NCBI GenBank assembly: GCA_944389525.1
Contig: CALXMR010000003.1
Location: 2,915-66,914 of the forward strand
Length of the DNA: 64,000 nucleotides
Direction: 5' to 3'
From: an uncultured Alphaproteobacteria bacterium
GTDB lineage: Bacteria > Pseudomonadota > Alphaproteobacteria > Rs-D84
The stretch's first letter is position 1, and the number at the start of each line of letters is the position of its first letter. Made by a program: the position numbers and the translations under genes. Under the pieces are notes generated by a model that saw only the letters and a list, made by a program, of their open reading frames with translations, was not told where the DNA came from and did no database searches. Positions 3,731 to 35,218 of this stretch are shown here, piece by piece.

Positions 3731-6671
3731 ATTGGCATTTATTTGGTGAAAAACTGATCACAACCTTGCGACACGATTCGTTTGGCTTGGTATCAGGTGT
3801 ATTGCATTCGGTTGATCCGACGCCAGACGTCTGTATGTTTGCAGATGGCAGTCCGGCCTGGATTAAGGCATCACCAACAGCCTTGGCCCGATTCTGTGAT
3901 AATGGCATATTTATCTTGTCTGTTCCAGATCTGTCCGTGTGACCGACAACAGTTATACAATAGTTTGTATCACTGCCTTGGGTCGTCTTTACCTGGGTTG
4001 CAAATGTCTTTATTGTTGTTTGGGCCTGTTGTGTTAAATCCGATTTGCCCAGTTCAAATAGGTTTTGTGCAGGCAATATCAGTTGTTCCGGTTCTGGTTG
4101 AGATGGTACAGTCAATTTCTCTAGTGCGCTTTGTATCATGCTTACTTTTACTTCTACACATATACCCTGATCGTTAATTTCATATTTATTAGAAGGACAT
4201 GTGCATTTGTTGTTAACCATATGATATCCATTTATGCATGAACAGGCACCAGTACTGGTATTAACTGTTACATTTGGATCTGTTTGATCGCACTGCACTG
4301 TTACATTGGGCGACAACGTATTGCATGTATTATTTTCCCCAGGTGCCGTTCCTGATGGACATTCACATCCGTTGCCTGTTGTATTTGCAACCTTGGCACC
4401 GGGGCATTGTTCACAGGCGTTTGAATTAGTATTGTATGCATATTTGCTGTTTGTGCAACGGCAATTTGGGAATGTCCCAGTGGAACCAGATGGACAACGA
4501 GCACCAGTTTCGCTGCTGGGCAGTTTCGCCGTATTGTCGCGTAATTTCTTTAGCGGTTCATACTTTGCAATAATTTCATCCGATTGTTCTTTTGGTGCCT
4601 TGTTATTTATAATTAAATTACCAACCATACCACCAACAGCACCAACGCCTGCAATGATTGCTCCAGTTTTTAGTTGTGATGATGTGTCTGCACGCTGTTG
4701 CGCCCATTCGGCGGCATCGGCACCCGTTGGATCAGACAACGCGCGCGACAGTGATGTATATGCACCATCTGTTCGGCCCAGTGATACATCGTCATACAGA
4801 CCCATGGTCGCACTGTCCATTACAACTTCGGATTCTATACCTGGGGCCAGCCCCAAGGCCTCTTTACGCGTTTTTACATCTGTGGACAGGGCAAAAAAGT
4901 CTTGACGAAATTGCAATAGGGTTGCACTAACTGGTAATTGCACATCTGTTTCGCCACCCGCGATATTGCGGCCCGCACCATAGTCACAGCGGAATGTTGC
5001 CAGATATGCCGCCATATCGCGTTCGGCGGCATCATCGGCGCGATTTTCTGCCACCGCAGACGCCAGTTGCATCCCCCCGATACCAGTGGCACCAATCGAC
5101 AGTCCGCCCAATAATTTATTTGCGGTGGATTGTTCTTTCGCTTTCATCGCATCTGCATTCTTTTGCAGTTCGTCTATTTTTTTCTGTGATTCTTCTTCGG
5201 ATAGTGTGGGACGAATACAGCTGCGTTGGTCATCGCTGGGGCGATATTCACCACTGCATTTTTCAATTATGCAAATTTCAGTATTTGTCGTTTCGTCCCA
5301 TTTACGATGCGCTACGGTTGCATGTTCGGGCATAGGATCGCAATCGCCAGAAATTGGGATACATTTGCCATCAGAAGGATTATATCCATCGTCACAGTCT
5401 GTGGCATGGCAAACACCTTTTTTCAATTCGCCTGCCGTTGCGTGTTCAATTGCTGATACCTGTTCGCTGGTACATGGGCCCTCGCTTTTTTTACATGCAG
5501 AACGATTGTCGTTTGGCAGATAGCCCTTTTGGCATGTTTTGATAACACAAACTAATTCATTGTTTATCCATTCGTATTTAGACTTTTTTGCATTTGTATC
5601 GCCAGATGTGCATTCTTTACCAACCTGGTCTTCACACGCATCGCCAATGGTGATTGTTTCGCATTTATCAGTGACTTCACAAAAATCTTCACATGAGCCA
5701 TCTTCACCGGTGGAACCAATACATATTTCTTGCGCGTCTTTTCTGGATTGAACAGAACGTGGATTTGTTAATTTATACCGGTCTGATACACATTGTATTG
5801 GATAGCATTTTTTACTGACGATATCATATGCAAGTGATTTTGAATTAGAGCCCTTTTCTGCAGTGCATACAGTGACAGTCACTTCGTCTATTTGCAGATC
5901 GGCTTCTGCTAATTTTATATCGCCCATGTTGTTATTAGCAGGCACATCAAAAGTCTGTGTTTTATAACCTGTTCGGGAAATTTTTATTTGTGACACAGAA
6001 CCTGGAACCGTTAATGAAAAATTTCCATCTATGTCAGCGGTTATCCCTTTATCTGTGCCCAGGGCAAACACGGCGGCAAATTCAATGGGTTTTTTTGTGA
6101 CAGAACTAATAATACGCCCTGTAATTGTTTTTTCTGTTGTTTCAGATTGATTGTTGGATGTTTCAAGATTTGCGTCTTTTTCTGTTGTAGAAACAGTGTT
6201 TGATTGTGTAGAAGGGGTGCCAGATGTGTTGTTGGTGGTATTACCGCATTCTTCTGCAATTTTTTTGTTTATAAACTGTTCCTCTGCATGGAATGCAATA
6301 AACTTGTCATCCATTTTACCACATACTAGATCCCAGCATTGTTCAGAAACGCATTCACGTAGCGTTTGCCCTTTTTTACATTCATATGTAGTACGAGCAT
6401 AACCAATGGGTTTGCAAGTGCCTTTTGTGTCTCCTGGAAGTGGTGTGTCTAGTTTTTGTTCACATTCTTCATCCTGCTTCTGTTTTAATTCATTATATAT
6501 TTTTTGATAATCTTGATCTTCATCAAAATCGTAAAGAAGATTATACTGGAATCTTATGTCTGATACGCAGTTTTCGTATTCTGAAGATGTTGCTGCCAAT
6601 GCGGGCAGGGTGAATAAAACGGCAAAGATTGTTATTATATAATTTCTTATGCTATTCATTTGTCTTCTCAT
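3729..6671 (-). CDS. Secreted multidomain Cys-rich protein with CarboxypepD_reg-like domain, Gly-rich hydrophobic segments and C-terminal OmpA-like peptidoglycan-binding domain
   Basis: Signal peptide; ITGRII..PIEFAAV..DIDGNFSL..GYKT; C..C..GY.P..C repeats; LFELGKSDL..VGHTDRSG..N..LSQNRA..V. Start overlaps the upstream stop (ATGA). Confidence 0.8.
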   Translation of the reverse strand: MRRQMNSIRNYIITIFAVLFTLPALAATSSEYENCVSDIRFQYNLLYDFDEDQDYQKIYNELKQKQDEECEQKLDTPLPGDTKGTCKPIGYARTTYECKKGQTLRECVSEQCWDLVCGKMDDKFIAFHAEEQFINKKIAEECGNTTNNTSGTPSTQSNTVSTTEKDANLETSNNQSETTEKTITGRIISSVTKKPIEFAAVFALGTDKGITADIDGNFSLTVPGSVSQIKISRTGYKTQTFDVPANNNMGDIKLAEADLQIDEVTVTVCTAEKGSNSKSLAYDIVSKKCYPIQCVSDRYKLTNPRSVQSRKDAQEICIGSTGEDGSCEDFCEVTDKCETITIGDACEDQVGKECTSGDTNAKKSKYEWINNELVCVIKTCQKGYLPNDNRSACKKSEGPCTSEQVSAIEHATAGELKKGVCHATDCDDGYNPSDGKCIPISGDCDPMPEHATVAHRKWDETTNTEICIIEKCSGEYRPSDDQRSCIRPTLSEEESQKKIDELQKNADAMKAKEQSTANKLLGGLSIGATGIGGMQLASAVAENRADDAAERDMAAYLATFRCDYGAGRNIAGGETDVQLPVSATLLQFRQDFFALSTDVKTRKEALGLAPGIESEVVMDSATMGLYDDVSLGRTDGAYTSLSRALSDPTGADAAEWAQQRADTSSQLKTGAIIAGVGAVGGMVGNLIINNKAPKEQSDEIIAKYEPLKKLRDNTAKLPSSETGARCPSGSTGTFPNCRCTNSKYAYNTNSNACEQCPGAKVANTTGNGCECPSGTAPGENNTCNTLSPNVTVQCDQTDPNVTVNTSTGACSCINGYHMVNNKCTCPSNKYEINDQGICVEVKVSMIQSALEKLTVPSQPEPEQLILPAQNLFELGKSDLTQQAQTTIKTFATQVKTTQGSDTNYCITVVGHTDRSGTDKINMPLSQNRAKAVGDALIQAGLPSANIQTSGVGSTECNTPDTKPNESCRKVVISFSPNKCQ

Positions 6672-22852: not shown

Positions 22853-23050
22853 CCTCAATTTATGTTAGCCTTTTGTTGTTGCGGGCGTAGTATACAGTAT
22901 ACATTATACATATGTCAAATTCATTAAAAAATATAATAATCAGGAATACAAACCCAGAAGCGTGAAATATTGGAGAATGGCAGTGTACTTTTTGTTTGCG
23001 TGATTTTGTGTAATGTGATAAAATCATATGTAATAGGAAGGATTTTTTAT

Positions 23051-25435
23051 ATGAAAAGACTTGTTGCCGTAATTAGTGGATTGTTGGTTTTACCCGCATT
23101 TGCAGAGGTTGCGCCCGAATATTTCTATCAGGAAATGATGGCGCAATATGCAGCAGAAAATCCAGAGATGGAATTTGTGACAGATTCTGCCACGGACGAA
23201 GTGGCGGATGTGTCAGAGCAGTCTGCAGACACTCAGCCGGTTGTTCCAGTTGTTCCAACCGCGGTCAGTCCGCGTAACACATCTGGTCGTGCGGCAGCGT
23301 CTCGTGCGGTCGCGTCATCAACAACCACATCTGCGCGTAATGTTGCAAATCGCGCAACGGCGGCGACAACGGCGCGTACTGTCTCTGCGCGGCCGGCGGC
23401 GGTGAACACGAAAACAACATCTTCGCGTGCGGCGGTAACGACACCGTCACGTGCGGCGGCATCGCGCACGGCACGGTCTGCATCAAATACGGTGGCCAAT
23501 CGGCCGACAACAACGGTGCGTTCGACAACTGCGTCTGTGCCGGGTGTAACAACGCGTACGGCATCGGCGCAAAAGAATAATTCAAATACGGCACGTGCAT
23601 CAATTGTTCAAACAGATACGGTCAATACCCCATTGTATATCAGTGGTGATACCACCGCACGGGTCAGCACTCGGTCCACGAATGTCAGTGCGCGTGTTCC
23701 GACAATACGCGTGGGGTCAACAACATCAACTGGGACATCTGAAACCAGTACATCGTCAACAATATCTATGGATGAATTGGCCCAGTTAACCGATTATTGC
23801 AAGGCCCAGTATGTTGCGTGTATGGATAATTTCTGCAATGTTCTGGATGACAGCCAGGGGCGTTGCAGTTGCAGTGCGAACCTGGATAATTATGCTGAAA
23901 CCGAAGCGGCGTTGAAGCAGGCAACTGCTGATTTGCAGGAGGTTGCCCAACAGATTCAATACATCGGCCTGACCGCAGAAGAAGTGGAAACATTATTCAC
24001 CCAGACCGAGGCGGAATTGCAAATGCAATCCAGCACGGATAACAGCCAGTTAAAGAATGATTTGGACAAGATAAAAAGTCTGATTGTTGATGTTGAATCT
24101 GGTCGCGCATCATCATCTTCGTCTGGGGGGGTAAGTTTTGATTTGTCGGGTTTGTTGGACTTTACAATCGACAGTACTGGATTTGATTTAGGATCCTTGC
24201 TGGGGATGAGTACCACGGACACCAGCAGTATCAGCAACCAACGTGGTGAAAAATTATATGATACCGCGGCGGCGCGTTGTCGTGCATCTGTATTGAACAG
24301 TTGCCAGGCCCAAGGGGTGGATATAACTGTTATCACAAACGCGTATGATTTGGAAATTGACAAGGCATGTATCGCGTACGAACGTGCCCTGACAGAATCT
24401 AATGATCAAATGGCATCAACGGTTCGCAACGCGAAAAGTGTGTTGCAGCGCGCGCGTCTGTTGGTGGCCCAGCAAAAGAATCAATACGATTTGCGTGGGT
24501 GTGTGACAGAATTAGACAACTGCATGCAAGATGATTTTGTTTGTGGCGATGATTACGAAAACTGTCTGGACCCCAGTGGTAAATTCATTGTTAACGGCGA
24601 AATTGTCGTGGGCAGTGAACCGGGCGCCCCGGGTGATGCTCTTGCGGCGATATATGACGCATGGGAATATACCAAGTCGAGCGGCGCTGGTTCCACAATA
24701 TATAATGCATGGGGGTTAAGTTCTTCGGATACGGACAACAAAGTATCTGCGGGTACGCTGGCGGACTATATTGCAGAAACGGTTACCAGTTCTGTGCCAT
24801 CGGGAACCTCGACCGACATGTCAAAGTTCTTGCAGAACAAAATCGGTTATCATGATGATGGGGACGGCAAAAACTATGGTATGTGCATCGCGGTGCTGAA
24901 TCGTTGCCAGGATCTGACATACGAAGGTACCGGCCAAAACAAGAAATATATACCAAACAATAATGTTATCAAAGAATACCTGAACCGTACATTAGTGCAA
25001 ATCAAATCTGCCCAGGATACAATTCTGGCCGATTATGCAGAAGACTGTATTACGGATGTGGCATCGTGTCTGACCCAGAATAACTATGATCCAGATGGGG
25101 GGGCTGGACAGATAGAATGGATTTATAACGGTGACTTGTGGTTCGAAACTGAAGGTGGGAGGTGTGGCCCGTTGTCATCACAGCAGACATTATTTGAACA
25201 TTTAGGCAATGCTGGTTTTGGGCTGTATAGTGCCGAAGGATGCCCGGAAGAAAAAGAGGTTAAGCTAAACGATGTTATACGGGTATCAACTGTGTCTGCG
25301 GCTAATATGGTTGCGATGCGCGCATGTAACCCAGTAATAACAACTTGTATGAGTGTTAATGGTGTTGAAAAGTCTGACGATTTTGATACATCGTTAACCC
25401 AGGCTGTCTGGATTCAACAGGTAATGGGAAATTAA
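23051..25435 (+). CDS. Secreted Cys-rich helical protein (novel paralogue family) with S/T/R/A-rich linker
   Basis: Signal peptide; CKAQYVACMDNFC..RCSCS; GEKLY..C; CGDDYENC. Confidence 0.8.
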   Translation: MKRLVAVISGLLVLPAFAEVAPEYFYQEMMAQYAAENPEMEFVTDSATDEVADVSEQSADTQPVVPVVPTAVSPRNTSGRAAASRAVASSTTTSARNVANRATAATTARTVSARPAAVNTKTTSSRAAVTTPSRAAASRTARSASNTVANRPTTTVRSTTASVPGVTTRTASAQKNNSNTARASIVQTDTVNTPLYISGDTTARVSTRSTNVSARVPTIRVGSTTSTGTSETSTSSTISMDELAQLTDYCKAQYVACMDNFCNVLDDSQGRCSCSANLDNYAETEAALKQATADLQEVAQQIQYIGLTAEEVETLFTQTEAELQMQSSTDNSQLKNDLDKIKSLIVDVESGRASSSSSGGVSFDLSGLLDFTIDSTGFDLGSLLGMSTTDTSSISNQRGEKLYDTAAARCRASVLNSCQAQGVDITVITNAYDLEIDKACIAYERALTESNDQMASTVRNAKSVLQRARLLVAQQKNQYDLRGCVTELDNCMQDDFVCGDDYENCLDPSGKFIVNGEIVVGSEPGAPGDALAAIYDAWEYTKSSGAGSTIYNAWGLSSSDTDNKVSAGTLADYIAETVTSSVPSGTSTDMSKFLQNKIGYHDDGDGKNYGMCIAVLNRCQDLTYEGTGQNKKYIPNNNVIKEYLNRTLVQIKSAQDTILADYAEDCITDVASCLTQNNYDPDGGAGQIEWIYNGDLWFETEGGRCGPLSSQQTLFEHLGNAGFGLYSAEGCPEEKEVKLNDVIRVSTVSAANMVAMRACNPVITTCMSVNGVEKSDDFDTSLTQAVWIQQVMGN

Positions 25436-28627: not shown

Positions 28628-29071
28628 TGGCGCAGCGGATACCCTCGGCTGGCGCCTGCGGGGAAACCGTGACGATTTGACTGCGCGTGCGCTTGTCAAA
28701 TCTACTTGTTTTCGAACCAGGCGATGTTCATCGCATGATTGAACCATCGCCACGACCCAAAAACAAAAACGCCACCAGGGCATTTTAATAATGTTTAATA
28801 TCAAGTGCGTCTGCCACACTTCGTTAAAACTTCGTGTGGCACTCCTTCGCGTGAACTGTTCCGCTCCGGCTTGCCACCCGAAGCGTCACAGACGCGAAGG
28901 GTGGTTGGGGCAGCTGGATACCCTCGGCTGGCGCCTGCGGGGAAACCGTGACGATTTGACTGCGCGCGCGCTTGTCAAATCTACTTGTTTTCGAACCAGG
29001 CGATATTCATCGCATGATTGAACCATCGCCACGAACCAAAAACAAAAACGCCACCAGGGCGTTTTAATTTT
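28628..29071 (-). repeat. Two near-identical ~150-170 bp structured repeats downstream of tRNA-Gln, each ending in a tRNA-like 3' end, separated by a ~110 bp hairpin-rich spacer
   Basis: 28638-28788 is nearly identical to 28917-29067. TGGTTGGGGCAGCTGGAT occurs at 28903 and 29072. Confidence 0.9.
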
Positions 29072-29145
29072 TGGTTGGGGCAGCTGGATTCGAACCAACA
29101 CTGACGGAGTCAGAGTCCGGAGTTCTACCGTTAAACTATGCCCCA
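29072..29145 (-). tRNA. tRNA-Gln (CTG)
   Basis: TGGGGCATAGTTTAACGGTAGAAC..CTCTGAC..GGTTCGAATCC..CCCCAACCA. Confidence 0.93.
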
Positions 29146-29197
29146 ATGCGGGGGTATTATATATTGTATTATGCGTGTTTGCAATCTATTTTTTTAT

Positions 29198-29226
29198 TTG
29201 CGTTTTAGCAGATGGTTGCGTATAAT
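29198..29226 (+). promoter_or_regulatory. Sigma70-type promoter
   Basis: TTGCGT-N17-TATAAT. Confidence 0.65.
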
Positions 29227-29233
29227 GTTTCCT

Positions 29234-29495
29234 GAATCCAAAGGGATTTGGATTCGGGTTCGTAAGAAAACCTTTACCAAATCGGCATATTAATATATGT
29301 CGTAATCCGCATGGGGATAGTATGCGGCGCAAAGGTTGCGCCTTTTATTATCCACAACCCCGCACAGGTCGGGGGGCCGTCAGTTATACAACAGGGACGC
29401 AAGCGGACCTGATTCAGGTTTCCCAAAGGCTGGCGGGGTCAAATTTGGTTGATTTTCTTAACCCACCCGACCGCCAAATCCGATTTGGATTGGCG
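29234..29495 (+). ncRNA. C4-antisense-like structured leader RNA with downstream complementary target sites
   Basis: Series of hairpins ending GGCGCA..TGCGCCTTTT. TAAGAAAA and ACCAAAT are complementary to ATTTGGT..TTTTCTTA at 29443-29460. GGTCGGG..CCCGACC forms a long-range stem. Confidence 0.55.
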
Positions 29496-29610
29496 GTGTT
29501 TTATAACCAGGAAATTTTTCACAATAATTTATGTTGAAAGTTTTTTTGGTTATGCTACGCTGAGAGAACAGAAGGGTATCAAATTTCAAAAACAGCAAAA
29601 GGAGAACGGT

Positions 29611-32526
29611 ATGGCGACATACAAGCATTTAACAGATTTATTAAAGATCTGTTCCGTGCTGCCTGCGTTGGCGATTATGCCCGCAATGGCAGAAGAACCA
29701 AACGTAAATATAAATAACAATAACTTGGCGCAGGACAATCGCGTATATAACGGCACAATAGCAGGCCAGCGTGCTGATAACGTACAACGTGGTGGTGCGG
29801 TAACTATTGGCTATGGTGTATCGGGTGTATCTGTGGCAGATGGCACCAGTTTCATAGGTAACAAGCATCTTGCCGCCACTGGTGGTGGTGCGATCAAGGC
29901 ACTGAATGGATTTACAATTGGTAATAATGTAACATTTGATGGCAATACCGCAGATAATAATGGGTGGGCCGGTGCACTGTATATAAAGCTGGCTGACAAG
30001 GCGAACCCTTCTGAAAATACGACTGTAAAGATTGGTGAAAACAGCGTATTTAAAAATAACAGTGGGTTGTTTGGTGGTGCAATTGGTCTGGAATATGGTA
30101 ACCTGGAAATTGCCAACGGTGCGCAGTTTATTGGAAATCATGCGAATGGTACGGCAGATACCTTTGGTGGTGGTGCAATTATCGTTTGGCAGGACCAAAA
30201 AGATCGTCCAGAACTGCATTCAACATTGAAATTGAATAACGCAACGTTTGAAGAAAACACGGCGAAGAAGTATGGTGCGGCGATTGCGGTATTTGATACA
30301 GGTGCAGAAACAACCATAAACGGTGGTTCGTTTAAGAAGAATTCAGTGGCAGAATCCGATGCAAAGAACCCAAGTGGTGGTGCGATTTATAATGTTGGCA
30401 TCATGAACATAGATGGTGTTGAGTTTAAAGAGAATAACGGAAATTACTCCGGTGGTGCGATTTACAATGCAAATAGCGGTGTTACAACGGTTAAAAATTC
30501 TCTGTTTAGTTCCAACACAGCTGCACAAGGTGGTGCGATTAATAATGCGGCCACAGCTGCGGATGAAGCCGGGGAATTAACCGTTGTTGATTCGGTGTTT
30601 GAAAATAATTATGCGTGGAATGGTGGCGCAATTAGAAACCAGGGGAAGGCAGACATACAGATAGCAAATATTGTTGGTGGTGATTTTGTCAACAATAGCT
30701 CGGCAAATGGCGGTGCTATTTGGAATGGTACTTGGGGAAAAATGACCATCTCTGGTGCCGAATTTAAAGGCAATTCGGTATCAAAGACATCCGAGGTTTA
30801 TAATACAGATAAGACGTCTGATGGTCAAGGTGGTGCGATTACTAATGCAGGTGTGTTAGAAATCACCAATGCCACATTTACTGGTAATAGTGCTGCTGGT
30901 ATTGGTGGTGCGATTGCGAATGTTACACCACAGACGAAAGACTCAGAGATAGTTTCGAAAATTGTGTTCGATACAGTTGCATTTGAAAATAATCATGCAG
31001 ATGAAAAAGGTGGTGCTATTTACAATGTCGCACGTGGTGAAATTGTTCTGAACGGTGAAAACACATTCAGTGGCAATATGGCGGGTGACGTTGCAAACGA
31101 CATCCACAATGATGGTAAATTTTCCATCGCGTCTGGCACAACAACGCTGGGTGGCGGTATTACCGGTGACGGTACACTGACCATTGAGGATGGTGCAACA
31201 CTGAATATCGGTACAACAACCGTAAAACAGTCTGAGGTTACACTGGATGGTACACTGACTGCACAAATCTTGAACCAGGGTTCGTGTGGTCGTGTCGAAA
31301 CAGGTAAGATCACCGTTGGCGATAAAGGACTGTTGAACCTGATGTTCGGATCTGTGGGTACATATAACTTTGGTGTGACAGTACCAGAAGATAAGATTGT
31401 GTATAACAATGCAATCTATGACGCCACATTCGGTGAAACAGGTGAAATCACTGTTGCAACCAAATCAGTGGAAGAAATTGCCCAGGGTACAAACCTGTCG
31501 ATGGGTGCGGCAAACGCGATCAGCATCATGGCCAACACAAAGGACGATGTGTTGAATACGATTTCGCTGATGGCGCAACAAGACCTGGTCGCGGGCAAGA
31601 CTGGCAATGCTGAAAAAGAACTGGCAAAACTGAACCCAGATGACAAGCCGGTCGCACAATCGGTCGCATCGTCTGTCCAGAACCAGGTGATGTCGCTGGC
31701 TGCGGGTCGTATGTCCGGTGCATCGGTCGGCCGCAGTGGTGGTGATTTAACATCTGCGGATTATGGCCTGTGGGTCCAGGGTCTGTACAACCATTCGAAA
31801 TATAATGGCAAGTTCAGCGGCGATACATGGGGTATTTCTGTCGGTGCAGATACACTGATTGACGGTAAATATACTCTGGGTATCGGTTATGCATACAATG
31901 ACACTGATGTCGATTCGAATTCGCGTGATACAGGTATCGAATCGAACAGCTTGTTCCTGTATGGCCAGTACAAGCCAAACGAATGGTATGTCAATGCAGC
32001 ATTGAACTATACAATGGCTAACTATGACGAATCTGCGGATCCATATGGATTCAAACGCAAGACAGAATATGATGTCGATTCGTTCGGTGGTCAAATCATG
32101 ACGGGTTATGACTTTGCAGCCGGTTTCACACCAGAAGTTGGTATGCGTTACCTGCATATCAGCCAGGATGCATATCAGAGCTGGTTGGGCGAAGTTGACG
32201 CGTTGGATACAGACTATCTGACCGGTGTCGCGGGCGTAAAGTATGCGTTCGAAATCGAATCGGCGTCTGAACTGAAATTCCGTCCGGAACTGCGTGCGGC
32301 GGCAACATATGACTTTATGTCTGATGCAGCCGTGGCAACAGTGACCGCGCCGGGTAATGTTGCATATGTCATCGATGCGGATCGTCTGTCACGGTTCGGT
32401 GGTGAATTCGGTATCGGATTGACCGCACAGTATCGTGGGCTGGATGTATCGTTGAACTATGAACTGGATCTGCACGAAGATTACACTTCACAGACCGGTA
32501 TGTTAAAGTTCAGATATGATTTCTAA
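29611..32526 (+). CDS. Autotransporter with Pmp-like GGA(I/L/V)/FxxN repeat passenger
   Basis: RBS AAGGAG, extended signal peptide, many GGAI and FxxN motifs, GRSGGD then beta-barrel ending FRYDF. Confidence 0.9.
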   Translation: MATYKHLTDLLKICSVLPALAIMPAMAEEPNVNINNNNLAQDNRVYNGTIAGQRADNVQRGGAVTIGYGVSGVSVADGTSFIGNKHLAATGGGAIKALNGFTIGNNVTFDGNTADNNGWAGALYIKLADKANPSENTTVKIGENSVFKNNSGLFGGAIGLEYGNLEIANGAQFIGNHANGTADTFGGGAIIVWQDQKDRPELHSTLKLNNATFEENTAKKYGAAIAVFDTGAETTINGGSFKKNSVAESDAKNPSGGAIYNVGIMNIDGVEFKENNGNYSGGAIYNANSGVTTVKNSLFSSNTAAQGGAINNAATAADEAGELTVVDSVFENNYAWNGGAIRNQGKADIQIANIVGGDFVNNSSANGGAIWNGTWGKMTISGAEFKGNSVSKTSEVYNTDKTSDGQGGAITNAGVLEITNATFTGNSAAGIGGAIANVTPQTKDSEIVSKIVFDTVAFENNHADEKGGAIYNVARGEIVLNGENTFSGNMAGDVANDIHNDGKFSIASGTTTLGGGITGDGTLTIEDGATLNIGTTTVKQSEVTLDGTLTAQILNQGSCGRVETGKITVGDKGLLNLMFGSVGTYNFGVTVPEDKIVYNNAIYDATFGETGEITVATKSVEEIAQGTNLSMGAANAISIMANTKDDVLNTISLMAQQDLVAGKTGNAEKELAKLNPDDKPVAQSVASSVQNQVMSLAAGRMSGASVGRSGGDLTSADYGLWVQGLYNHSKYNGKFSGDTWGISVGADTLIDGKYTLGIGYAYNDTDVDSNSRDTGIESNSLFLYGQYKPNEWYVNAALNYTMANYDESADPYGFKRKTEYDVDSFGGQIMTGYDFAAGFTPEVGMRYLHISQDAYQSWLGEVDALDTDYLTGVAGVKYAFEIESASELKFRPELRAAATYDFMSDAAVATVTAPGNVAYVIDADRLSRFGGEFGIGLTAQYRGLDVSLNYELDLHEDYTSQTGMLKFRYDF

Positions 32527-32734: not shown

Positions 32735-32845
32735 AAAATAAGGGGCAGGGAAATCACACATCGGGATTGTACAGGTGGAATACAAATTTATTGCAAGGGG
32801 TGGGGGTTTGTTTTTATGATATGCTTGTTGGAAAAGGGGATGTGT

Positions 32846-35218
32846 ATGATTTTGCGTTTTTATAATATCTGTATAACTGGGGCGATTGTAATGATGGTGG
32901 TGATGCCCGCGGCTGGGGCCGACCGAATCGTTGTTGATGCCGGCGGGGAATTTACACTGGATGCACCAAAATATACTCAATATGTTACCGAGACTGAAAA
33001 TGGGGGACTGGTTTTTAATGCCGGAACATTGGAATTAAATTCTGGGGTTGTGGTGACCGAAAATTCGGGGGTATTTGGTGGTGCAATCTGGAACCAGGGA
33101 ACAATAACGCAAAATCTGAATTCGGGGGCAGGACAGTTATCTTTTTTCAGAAATAAATCGACAAATGCCGGTGGCGCAATCTATAACAGCGAAACAGGGG
33201 TTATAAAAAGTCTGAGTCATGTTTTATTCCAAGAAAATACTGCGGCAATGGGGGGCGCAATCAATAATTCCAAGGTGAATGCCGCGGCACATGGTGGTGT
33301 TATAGAATTGATTTCTAATACCAGTTTTATTGGTAATTCTGCGGGCGCGTCCCAGGGCGGGGCGATTCGTAACCAGGGAAAAATTAACGATATTGTCGAT
33401 TCGTTGTTTATGCAAAATACGGCTGGGAATGGTGGCGCAATCAATAACGGATCGTGGGGCAGTGTTGTTAATGGTATTACAAATACACAATTCGTGAATA
33501 ATACGGCACTGGCTGGCGATTGGCAACAGGGTGGCGCAATCGTAAATGCCGGTGTGATTAATCGCATAGAAGCGTCTGAATTCAGCGGAAACCAGGCTGG
33601 AAAAAATGGGGGCGCAATCGCAAATGTTATAAATACGGCCGGAACCCAGCCTGTTATTTCATTGAAAGATGTTCAATTCTTGAATAATCGCGCGGGTGTT
33701 GCCGGGGGTGCAATTTATAACGAAGTGGGCGCTGTGGTCAATCTGGATGGTGATAATATTTTTTCAGGAAATACCGCGGGCGATGATACAAATGATATTC
33801 ATAACCTGGGCCAGGTTGTAATTAATTCTGGGGTTACAAAGTTTGGTGGCGGTATTACGGGAACAGGTGAATTGACCATAAAATCAGATGCCACAATGGA
33901 TATTGGCGCAACAACCGTGACCCAGGGGATTATAAACCTGGATGGGACGGTGTCGATGTCGGTGCTGAACGCGGATTCGTATGGACAGTTAATGGCGGAT
34001 ACATACAATATCGCCGATGGTGGCGTTGTGCGGATATCATTGGGGACGGCGGGAACATATGAACTGTTTTCGGATGGTTGGGATGGAAAACTGGAATACA
34101 ACGATTCGATGTATAATATGTCACTTGATGGTGGCCATGTGACATTCAGTACAAAATCTGTGGATGAAATCGCAGATAAAAATAATCTGACTACGGCCGC
34201 CGCCACGGTGATGGCGGGACTGGCCAATGTGGGGGATTATTCTGTGGCGGTTGCATCGTTGAACGCGCAACAGGCACTGGCCAGCGGTAATACAGAATAT
34301 ATTGAACAAGAATCAAAAAAACTGGGGGCGTATGATGTGCCAGTTGTGCAATCGGTCGCCGCGTCTGTCCAGGGCCAGGCGTTGTCACTGGCCGCGGGTC
34401 GTATGTCCGGCGCATCGGTCGGCCGCAGTGGTGGTGACGCGATTGCAACAGAATACGGTGTCTGGGGGCGCGGAATGTTTAATCATACCCAGTATTCAGA
34501 TGTATTTACCGGAAATATGCGCGGTATTGCCGTTGGAATAGATGGGCAGATAAATAAAAAATATACCGTTGGACTGGGGTATTCTTATAACAGGGCGGAT
34601 CTGGATGCCAACGCGCGGGATACAAATGTCGAAAATAATACACTGTTTGTCTATGGCCAGTATCAACCAAACAAGTGGTATATTAACGCAACAGCAAACT
34701 ATACGATGTCAAAGTATATGGATACGGCAAATGTGTTCGGAATCATGATTGAATCGGAATACGATACCACTGCGTTTGGTGGTGCCATCATGACAGGATA
34801 TGATTTTGCGTTTGGTTTGGCACCGATGGCAGGGGTCAGATATTTGCACATAGATTCTGATGAATATGATAATGGTATATTGACAATTAATGCCGATGCA
34901 ACAAATTATCTGACGGGCGTTGTTGGGGCGCAATACGATTTTGTGATTGGGTCTGATTGGACGGTTAAATTCCGCCCAGAATTGCACGCGGTGGCAACAT
35001 ATGATTTCTTGTCGGATTCGGCGTTGGCCACAGTAACAGGAATCGATTCTGTGGCATATGTTGTTGATGGGGGACGGCTGTCGCGATTTGGGGGCGAATT
35101 CGGAATCGGACTGGCGATGATGTATGATGGATGGGATATTTCTGTGAATTACGCGTTGAATTTGCACAGTGACTATACATCACAGACAGGTATGTTAAAA
35201 TTTAGATATGATTTCTGA
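32846..35218 (+). CDS. Autotransporter with Pmp-like repeat passenger (tandem paralogue)
   Basis: GGAI/FxxN repeats, GRSGGD, beta-barrel ending FRYDF. Start could be 32840 or 32846. Confidence 0.9.
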   Translation: MILRFYNICITGAIVMMVVMPAAGADRIVVDAGGEFTLDAPKYTQYVTETENGGLVFNAGTLELNSGVVVTENSGVFGGAIWNQGTITQNLNSGAGQLSFFRNKSTNAGGAIYNSETGVIKSLSHVLFQENTAAMGGAINNSKVNAAAHGGVIELISNTSFIGNSAGASQGGAIRNQGKINDIVDSLFMQNTAGNGGAINNGSWGSVVNGITNTQFVNNTALAGDWQQGGAIVNAGVINRIEASEFSGNQAGKNGGAIANVINTAGTQPVISLKDVQFLNNRAGVAGGAIYNEVGAVVNLDGDNIFSGNTAGDDTNDIHNLGQVVINSGVTKFGGGITGTGELTIKSDATMDIGATTVTQGIINLDGTVSMSVLNADSYGQLMADTYNIADGGVVRISLGTAGTYELFSDGWDGKLEYNDSMYNMSLDGGHVTFSTKSVDEIADKNNLTTAAATVMAGLANVGDYSVAVASLNAQQALASGNTEYIEQESKKLGAYDVPVVQSVAASVQGQALSLAAGRMSGASVGRSGGDAIATEYGVWGRGMFNHTQYSDVFTGNMRGIAVGIDGQINKKYTVGLGYSYNRADLDANARDTNVENNTLFVYGQYQPNKWYINATANYTMSKYMDTANVFGIMIESEYDTTAFGGAIMTGYDFAFGLAPMAGVRYLHIDSDEYDNGILTINADATNYLTGVVGAQYDFVIGSDWTVKFRPELHAVATYDFLSDSALATVTGIDSVAYVVDGGRLSRFGGEFGIGLAMMYDGWDISVNYALNLHSDYTSQTGMLKFRYDF

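Follow-up and report, generated by a model that had tools for sequence, protein, structure and literature searches.

A two-module cassette upstream of an autotransporter gene

Between a gene for tRNA-Gln(CUG) (29072-29145, - strand; given for context only) and a gene for an autotransporter with Pmp repeats (29611-32526, + strand), the 64,000-nucleotide (nt) stretch analysed here (the window), from an uncultured Alphaproteobacteria bacterium, carries at positions 29198-29504 a self-contained cassette that is one copy of a bipartite family, termed "lock-and-key" below. The cassette lies on the + strand, divergent from the tRNA gene. The autotransporter comprises 971 aa, is preceded by the Shine-Dalgarno sequence AGGAG (29600-29604) and matches the Pfam families Autotransporter (2.4e-33) and Chlam_PMP (4.9e-16); a second Pmp-repeat autotransporter comes next, at 32816-35218. 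Rfam models applied at gathering thresholds returned only four tRNAs in the whole window, and the open reading frames (ORFs) at 28791-29021 and 29322-29537 gave no Pfam match. The indel pattern and the covariation described below argue that the cassette is non-coding.

All elements listed in a preliminary description of this DNA, i.e. promoter, hairpins, complementary boxes and terminators, were recovered in place when positions 28800-30100 were read. The promoter, identified by sequence reading, has the -35 element TTGCGT (29198-29203), a 17-nt spacer and the -10 element TATAAT (29221-29226). A consensus scan missed it because its -35 matches TTGACA at 3/6 positions only; a -35 with TTG and a TATAAT-like -10 are present at the same alignment position in 11/11 relatives and in 7/7 paralogues from the window's own genome. 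This promoter is predicted to be of the sigma-70 type and to drive one transcript, whose likely start is at ~29233, where conservation begins at TGAATCC.

The 5′ module, or lock, opens with hairpin H1 (GAATCCAAA, 29234-29242, pairing with TTTGGATTC, 29247-29255), which is also present in the minimum-free-energy fold. The loop of the following hairpin H2 (GGTT-CGTAAGAA-AACC, 29257-29272), which forms when the 5′ module is folded alone, displays box b1 (GUAAGAAAA, ~29262-29270), the partner of box b′ farther downstream. Box a1 (ACCAAAT, 29276-29282) stays single-stranded when this module is folded by itself and is complementary to box a′. Two more hairpins, found by sequence reading and folding, are H3 (29283-29302) and H4 (29307-29327); H3 is the most variable segment of the cassette (identity 0.36 over 15 orthologues), yet its hairpin is kept. 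Between the modules stands hairpin H5 (GGCGCAA..TTGCGCC followed by the T-tract TTTTATTAT, 29326-29351), a weak terminator or pause site that was listed as terminator-like in a terminator scan and is found in most copies of the order. Past it, the C-rich stretch CCCCGC (29358-29363) could pair with the 5′ strand of stem P1 and is labelled, tentatively, "anti-P1".

The 3′ module, or key (29367-29476), resembles the small RNA sRNA-Xcc1. Its 7-bp terminal stem P1 (GGTCGGG, 29367-29373, with CCCGACC, 29466-29472) encloses hairpin P2 (29377-29385 with 29428-29436; loop of the AUACAACAGG type) and hairpin P3 (29437-29441 with 29450-29454). Box a′ (29442-29449; ATTTGGT at 29443-29449) sits in the P3 loop, and box b′ (TTTTCTTAAC, 29453-29462) forms a single-stranded linker between P3 and P1. 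P1 is directly followed by G plus CCA (29473-29476). The cassette ends in an intrinsic terminator (CCGCCAA/TTGGCGG plus TGTTTTAT, 29471-29504) that has 2 nt in common with the 3′ strand of P1. Taken alone, each of the two modules folds as modelled.

Pairing between the modules and their addresses

The 271-nt cassette stretch folded with z = -6.3, none of 200 shuffles being equally good, and in its full-length minimum-free-energy fold both upstream boxes are paired with their downstream counterparts. Homologues within the same genus were ~68% identical (BLAST against 40 relatives), and in their alignment changes in the variable segment behind H2 go along with changes in that of the downstream module. 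Over 11 sequences, the eight-helix structure had 97.9% of cells paired and compensatory changes in 20 of 48 pairs; none of 500 shuffles reached it, and slid controls gave at most 53%. In this set, compensatory changes affected both sides of the a/a′ helix in all eight pairs and H1 in four of five (100% of cells paired), and double changes were present in two of the four H2 stem pairs (93% of cells paired). Compensatory changes between antisense and target sites, which the preliminary description had proposed as a check, are thus abundant. The key module, aligned over 17 copies, was 94.5% paired with double changes in 11 of 26 pairs, again reached by 0/500 shuffles, and in these 17 copies the helix of the cassette terminator showed compensatory changes in 5/5 pairs. 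Box b is constant among orthologues and differs, with compensation, in two relatives and all paralogues. Since the a/b helices contain G-U pairs, it is + strand RNA, and not DNA, that pairs.

The stems of P3 and H2 covary strongly, distant relatives included. Because these stems covary and their loops hold the boxes, we take the boxes to be displayed by folded hairpins, and boxes held in this way are the arrangement of kissing antisense RNAs. Directly after P1, the motif R-Y-C-A is present in 36 of 38 copies (GCCA in 20, GTCA in 10, ACCA in 5 and ATCA in 1), with RCCA in 25 of the 38, and in every one of them the last 1-3 nt of P1 are also taken up by the terminator stem. The C-rich anti-P1 stretch covaries with P1 in two divergent copies (L017 and the eighth copy of the own genome), and its pairing count over the 38 copies was no better than that of shuffles (5.89 vs 5.97); the anti-P1 hairpin is kept, tentatively, on these two covariation events.

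Within each copy the a/b address is complementary, and between copies it is different. Predicted lock-key duplex energies for 43 distinct copies were -17.9 kcal/mol for cognate vs -7.8 kcal/mol for non-cognate combinations, the cognate key ranking first in 39 cases, and the 7 x 7 matrix of locks and keys from the own genome is diagonal-dominant. A relative with an especially large set of cassettes, G019, gave the same picture over 28 distinct copies (-17.2 vs -7.1; cognate first in 23): about eight b types are combined with about 24 a types, such that each (a, b) pair is unique in the list, which was read by eye. For 58 distant copies the values were -34.4 vs -25.6, with the cognate key first in 29 and within the first five in 47. 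As the addresses are private, each copy would control only itself. The preliminary description had suggested that the element, if it recurs before other autotransporters, could cross-regulate adhesin expression. The element is indeed repeated ahead of further autotransporters and surface genes; as every copy has its private a/b address, cross-regulation is nevertheless unlikely.

A search of the own genome for second sites of its seven keys returned best non-self blastn-short matches at E >= 0.2 and regular-expression matches that were chance-like. One look-alike of the window's a′b′ stretch (19/22 positions) lies on another contig, where it coincides with the start codon of the gene for a terminase large subunit (G000:C13:43889-45763; GpA ATPase and nuclease domains). 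As a single post hoc match within overlapping coding sequence, it is likely due to chance. The terminase gene itself indicates that the own genome carries prophage genes.

Family, relatives and downstream genes

The preliminary description had called for comparison with the Rfam models of phage-type antisense RNAs, and none of these matches any copy. C4 (RF01695; cut-off 45 bits) had no match at E <= 10 in positions 28700-29750, and its best score genome-wide, 12.4 bits, was away from the cassette; c4-a1b1 (RF03163; cut-off 46.7 bits) reached 12.7 bits genome-wide, at no cassette; isrK (RF01394; cut-off 50 bits) reached 25.2 bits, with none of its 35 weak matches on a cassette. The one model to respond, below its gathering score of 53 bits, was sRNA-Xcc1 (RF02221), with 31.4 bits on 29367-29480 (E 5.7e-4 genome-wide), 47.7 bits on the paralogue C1:177766-177853 (E 8e-8) and 36-40 bits in six of 20 distant loci; with this model, E <= 0.01 was reached by none of 10 copies taken from the class's other families. 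Going by the scores of the window copy, the paralogue and the distant loci, which are significant although they stay below the cut-off, we take the key module to be related to sRNA-Xcc1 at a sub-threshold level. It has the same build, a terminal stem closing two internal hairpins, the first with an AUACAA-type loop, and differs in that the window copy carries a 31-nt insertion in the P2 loop, which makes its key ~106 nt rather than ~88 nt long.

In Xanthomonas, sRNA-Xcc1 was mapped by RACE as an 88-nt RNA, as excerpts of PMC2996969 have it; in Xylella it adjoins C4 and isrK, according to Table 4 of PMC12189769, and the passages on it place it ahead of accessory genes, symE and ORF6N among them. 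A further difference is the lock: the passages and abstract beginnings consulted on sRNA-Xcc1 make no mention of a coupled upstream complementary module. The two-part cassette family has apparently not been described so far.

The own genome, 0.92 Mb in size, holds eight copies, seven of them found in full by nhmmer and the divergent eighth by R1, a covariance model of the key module built here; further copies, which the preliminary description had proposed to look for, are thus present. R1 matches were found in 136 of 151 genomes of the order, amounting to at least ~1,330 matches with at most 24 candidates scored per genome, and in 15 of 149 genomes of other families, sampled as one genome per family of the class. 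Searched alone, G019 yielded 50 copies in a 1-Mb genome, and cassettes occupy >1% of some 1-Mb genomes. None of the 43 distinct copies is truncated, lock and key being always adjacent in one transcription unit, and the conserved blocks extend past the b1a1 and a′b′ repeats on both sides. In G019, many cassettes stand at contig ends, from which it follows that they break assemblies.

A pattern scan of species genomes gave at least 120 stretches, with 80 loci carrying titles. Among the matches listed, the named loci are mostly from Alphaproteobacteria (Sphingomonas, Devosia, Microvirga, Novosphingobium, Hyphomicrobium, Rickettsia and gut metagenome-assembled genomes including Candidatus Enterousia) and also include Acidobacteria and others; R1 confirmed 59 of these 80. 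In other taxa the cassette takes a compact form, in which H2, a1 and H3 are followed 15-30 nt later by P1, with no mid terminator. The cassette stretch was also found in chicken and other gut metagenomes, and 20 of 39 viral-contig loci matched R1. That the neighbourhood of the window cassette holds no phage genes, as the preliminary description had it, is correct; the family as a whole, however, is present on viral contigs, and the terminase gene stands on another contig of the own genome.

The genes downstream of the cassettes are mostly autotransporters, outer-membrane proteins, lipoproteins and glycosyltransferases. In the own genome they comprise two autotransporters, an outer-membrane beta-barrel protein, RgpF/TOD1-type glycosyltransferases, an XRE regulator (behind the copy at C1:177753) and three genes without a Pfam match, including the one behind the eighth copy. 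Of the 43 distinct copies, 19 are followed by an orthologue of the window autotransporter, recognised by its shared N-terminus (listing read, with Pfam run on a sample); in relatives the cassette also precedes a YadA-anchor adhesin, GT-D and LicD enzymes, lipoproteins and signal-peptide proteins. In other taxa, XRE and RovC-type regulators, GT8, GmrSD, a DNA methylase and many proteins with signal peptides are found in this position. In most copies the gene starts 20-35 nt past the terminator.

Several of these loci have further features. None of 15 downstream proteins tested from G019 had a Pfam match, and its loci L241-L270 encode a large paralogous secreted family (mature N-terminus ASIxSRGFFDE...), each member behind a differently addressed cassette. 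At L034 (G000:C1:105000-115000), a MerR-like gene and a large serine recombinase lie behind the cassette and its small autotransporter, which suggests a mobile island. On the viral contig L240 (IMG/VR), an RVT_1 reverse transcriptase (278-1252) is encoded directly upstream of a cassette preceding a secreted protein of >480 aa, and this may be the neighbourhood of a diversity-generating retroelement.

In the window, a second promoter-like motif on the + strand (29534-29561) separates the cassette from the autotransporter gene, with TTGAAA at 29534-29539, a 16-nt spacer that includes TGc and TACGCT at 29556-29561. Between the cassette terminator and this motif, and likewise at orthologous loci (e.g. 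L014, L016 and L039; in relatives TTCAACAAAAATAT..ATATTTTTGTTGAA), lies an AT-rich palindrome (29505-29539) that overlaps the -35 of the motif and could be an operator or a second hairpin.

On the other side of the cassette, the terminator hairpin of the tRNA-Gln gene lies within a 153-nt direct repeat (28637-28789 and 28916-29068; 97% identity), and the 18-nt 3′ end of the tRNA gene is duplicated (28902-28919 being equal to 29072-29089). The repeats at 28637-29089 look like the scar of an element integrated at the tRNA. The own-genome cassette L032 (G000:C7, 4988-5214, - strand) is likewise divergent from a tRNA gene (5326-5399, + strand), the two being ~110 nt apart. Elsewhere in the window, an 821-aa ORF (22970-25435) had a weak, sub-threshold Pfam match only (FTA4).

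Known antisense systems and possible modes of action

Two phage systems share the layout of the cassette. The C4 RNA of phages P1 and P7 is an antisense RNA with an upstream a1b1 site and a second site, a2b2. In phage P4, the leader-processed CI RNA (seqB) pairs with an upstream complementary site (seqA) and governs premature termination before the downstream genes. Like C4, the key is a small RNA-like module with two boxes, a′ and b′, whose matching boxes lie upstream in the same transcript, and it has an acceptor-like terminal stem with CCA, here a sequence feature only; in C4, this is the site of RNase P, and C4 and CI RNAs are both RNase P substrates, as stated in excerpts of PMC5499578. 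Unlike the P1/P7 system, the cassette matches no C4 or c4-a1b1 covariance model and has no a2b2 site where ribosomes bind the next gene; it is closed by an intrinsic terminator and is chromosomal, multi-copy and placed ahead of surface-protein genes, not of icd/ant. Like the P4 system, it has a seqA-like complementary site upstream in the same transcription unit; it differs in having no downstream seqC-like site and two boxes where CI has one, a comparison made at the level of layout. The antisense-plus-target layout that the preliminary description had likened to P1/P7 C4 and P4 CI therefore matches, and the complementarity is real. Its reading as a phage-type riboregulator is supported as to layout and covariation and not supported as to the Rfam models, the assignment of roles between the modules and cross-regulation.

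Two further comparisons concern recognition and genomic setting. CopA/CopT-type kissing pairs need no Hfq. In these pairs, as in the cassette, recognition involves loops and adjacent single strands of folded hairpins, and Hfq was not found in the own genome, which is 97% complete; the CopA/CopT partners come from opposite strands of one locus, whereas those of the cassette lie in tandem on one strand. Excerpts of PMC5387305 describe Brt1-9 of Bartonella henselae as multi-copy, highly expressed RNAs of 194-203 nt that are 74-100% alike and genus-specific, that each lie directly upstream of a poorly transcribed XRE regulator gene and that are linked to control of an autotransporter adhesin. Compared by anatomy, both are alphaproteobacterial, multi-copy RNAs of ~200 nt with their own terminator directly upstream of a gene. 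In those excerpts no lock or key feature is described for the Brt RNAs, which, compared by description only, may be relatives of the cassette.

Given the layout common with P1 C4-a1b1 and P4 CI-seqA, the RNase P substrates among these RNAs and the neighbours of sRNA-Xcc1, we read the cassette as a locus-private bipartite riboregulator of the C4/CI type, a view to which we give about even credence. The key would be cut from the transcript by RNase P at the acceptor-like stem, with the terminator trimmed off; an RNase P RNA gene is present in the own genome. It would then dock on the lock by two loop-to-linker contacts, in the same molecule or on new transcripts of the same locus, and docking would set transcriptional read-through past the cassette terminators into the gene behind. 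The controlled step would thus probably be passage through these terminators. RNA libraries offer some hints: a contig of 107 nt covers 29367-29462 plus 10 loose letters, i.e. exactly P1 to P1, in agreement with the 88-nt size of sRNA-Xcc1; another of 203 nt, in a second library and from a variant strain, covers 29245-29446 and bridges both modules and the mid terminator; and in X15 contigs of this kind cover the key and not the lock, a weak hint in which missing cover is no sign of absence.

A number of points weigh against the C4/CI-type reading. Processing of the key, its action in trans and its effect on termination or on the downstream gene are steps that we infer, and the library signals are weak hints, because assembled contigs show no ends, strand or level. 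When the full-length sequence is folded to minimum free energy, the a/b helix and the final terminator are both formed, so that pairing is no obvious anti-terminator. Among orthologues, box a is no more variable than the plain hairpins H3 and H5; if pairing were constrained within the molecule alone, drift could be enough to produce private addresses. In one distant copy, L071, lock and key are mismatched, and a search of its genome for a partner of this key found the key itself only. The second site of the P1 system has no counterpart: pairing of the key with the 160 nt downstream gave -12.9 for cognate and -12.5 for non-cognate combinations with uniform ranks, i.e. no a2b2-like site, and the lock gave no signal with the downstream region. 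Indeed, G019 has six cassettes whose boxes differ although the leaders and genes behind them are nearly identical, and the boxes are therefore not addressed to the downstream ribosome-binding site. With no third site, the P1 mode, a block of the ribosome-binding site, is excluded. Finally, the window autotransporter has a conserved promoter-like motif of its own (TTGAnn, 16-17 nt, TGnTAnGAAT at orthologous loci; motif only). This speaks, at the level of motifs, against the view that the autotransporter is driven through the element and not from a promoter downstream of it, and the link between cassette and autotransporter may accordingly be weaker in the window than in copies with a gene 20-35 nt past the terminator.

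The main rival is a purely cis-acting leader or attenuator as proposed for the Brt RNAs, which we consider a possible though unlikely account. Here, one ~270-nt RNA would form the a/b contacts intramolecularly and so hold its two halves in one fold, and whether RNA polymerase passes the final terminator would depend on some signal (ligand, protein, temperature or transcription speed), without any RNA acting in trans. The adjacency of lock and key in 43/43 full-length copies, the a/b helix within the full-length fold, the short distance from terminator to gene, the modest variability of box a and the library contig that spans both modules are as such a leader would have them, as are the high expression of Brt RNAs and the poor transcription of the genes behind them (excerpts of PMC5387305). 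However, boxes presented in the loops of the covarying hairpins H2 and P3 are better explained by folded modules that dock than by a plain helix, the key is related to an RNA that accumulates separately at 88 nt, the X15 contigs fall on the key and not on the lock (the weak hint given above), and no invariant core resembling a ligand pocket was identified.

It is improbable, in our estimate, that the key is a trans-acting small RNA that regulates other mRNAs via a′/b′ and is made from a self-masked precursor, the lock hiding its seeds or acting as a built-in sponge. The key is built like a stand-alone small RNA with exposed boxes, sRNA-Xcc1 is called trans-acting (by the title of Chen et al. 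2011 only), and Brt1 has been proposed to act in trans on badA, according to excerpts of PMC5387305. Yet no second site was found in the own genome for any of its seven keys, and the 50 differently addressed keys of a 1-Mb genome would lead one to expect an equal number of dispersed targets, none of which was seen.

The preliminary description had assigned the roles the other way round, with a ~110-nt upstream RNA, running from the promoter to the mid terminator, as the antisense and the downstream stem region as its target or target mimic. The mid hairpin and T-tract could end a short RNA, and the terminase start-codon site, being like a′b′ at 19 of 22 positions, would pair with the upstream module. 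Nevertheless, we judge this orientation very improbable and the roles to be probably reversed. It is the downstream module that is related to a known small RNA and has the C4/CI-like features (7-bp stem, R-Y-C-A, boxes in loop and linker) as well as the discrete 107-nt RNA contig; the compact form in other taxa lacks the mid terminator, its lock ending 15-30 nt before P1; a library contig reads through that terminator; and the terminase site is a single post hoc match in overlapping coding sequence, without a counterpart for the other six copies.

That the b1a1 and a′b′ inverted repeats act in DNA, as an invertible segment or miniature transposon, is scarcely credible: the element is multi-copy, often stands at contig ends and lies ahead of surface genes of a phase-variable type, but the G-U pairs of the a/b helices and of P2/P3 work in + strand RNA only, the repeats differ between copies and so offer no common recombinase site, the promoter is outside them and the conserved blocks reach beyond them on both sides.

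Within the C4/CI-type reading, we see a small chance that each cassette is an autonomous RNA feedback switch, heritable and of the P4-immunity kind. The key would act on nascent transcripts with its own address only and lock the locus in a terminated (OFF) or read-through (ON) state. Given up to 50 mutually orthogonal addresses in a 1-Mb genome, ahead of paralogous genes for secreted proteins, autotransporters and glycosyltransferases, surface genes would then switch independently and without DNA change, an RNA-only phase variation derived from phage immunity RNAs.

If the C4/CI-type reading is true, accessory and surface genes have come under the general control of an immunity RNA module of the phage type, which is duplicated on a massive scale and occurs in Alphaproteobacteria and beyond. 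Reduced gut symbionts with few protein regulators, and here without a detectable Hfq, would thereby gain cheap, one-by-one control of dozens of adhesin-like genes. The natural orthogonal two-box addresses form a ready collection from which synthetic RNA regulators could be drawn, and ~1,000 loci that fall below the Rfam gathering thresholds could be annotated with a covariance model of the lock or of the key. RNAs of the sRNA-Xcc1 type, annotated in many plant and animal pathogens as trans-acting small RNAs to which no target is assigned, may generally be the key half of a two-part cassette with its lock directly upstream.

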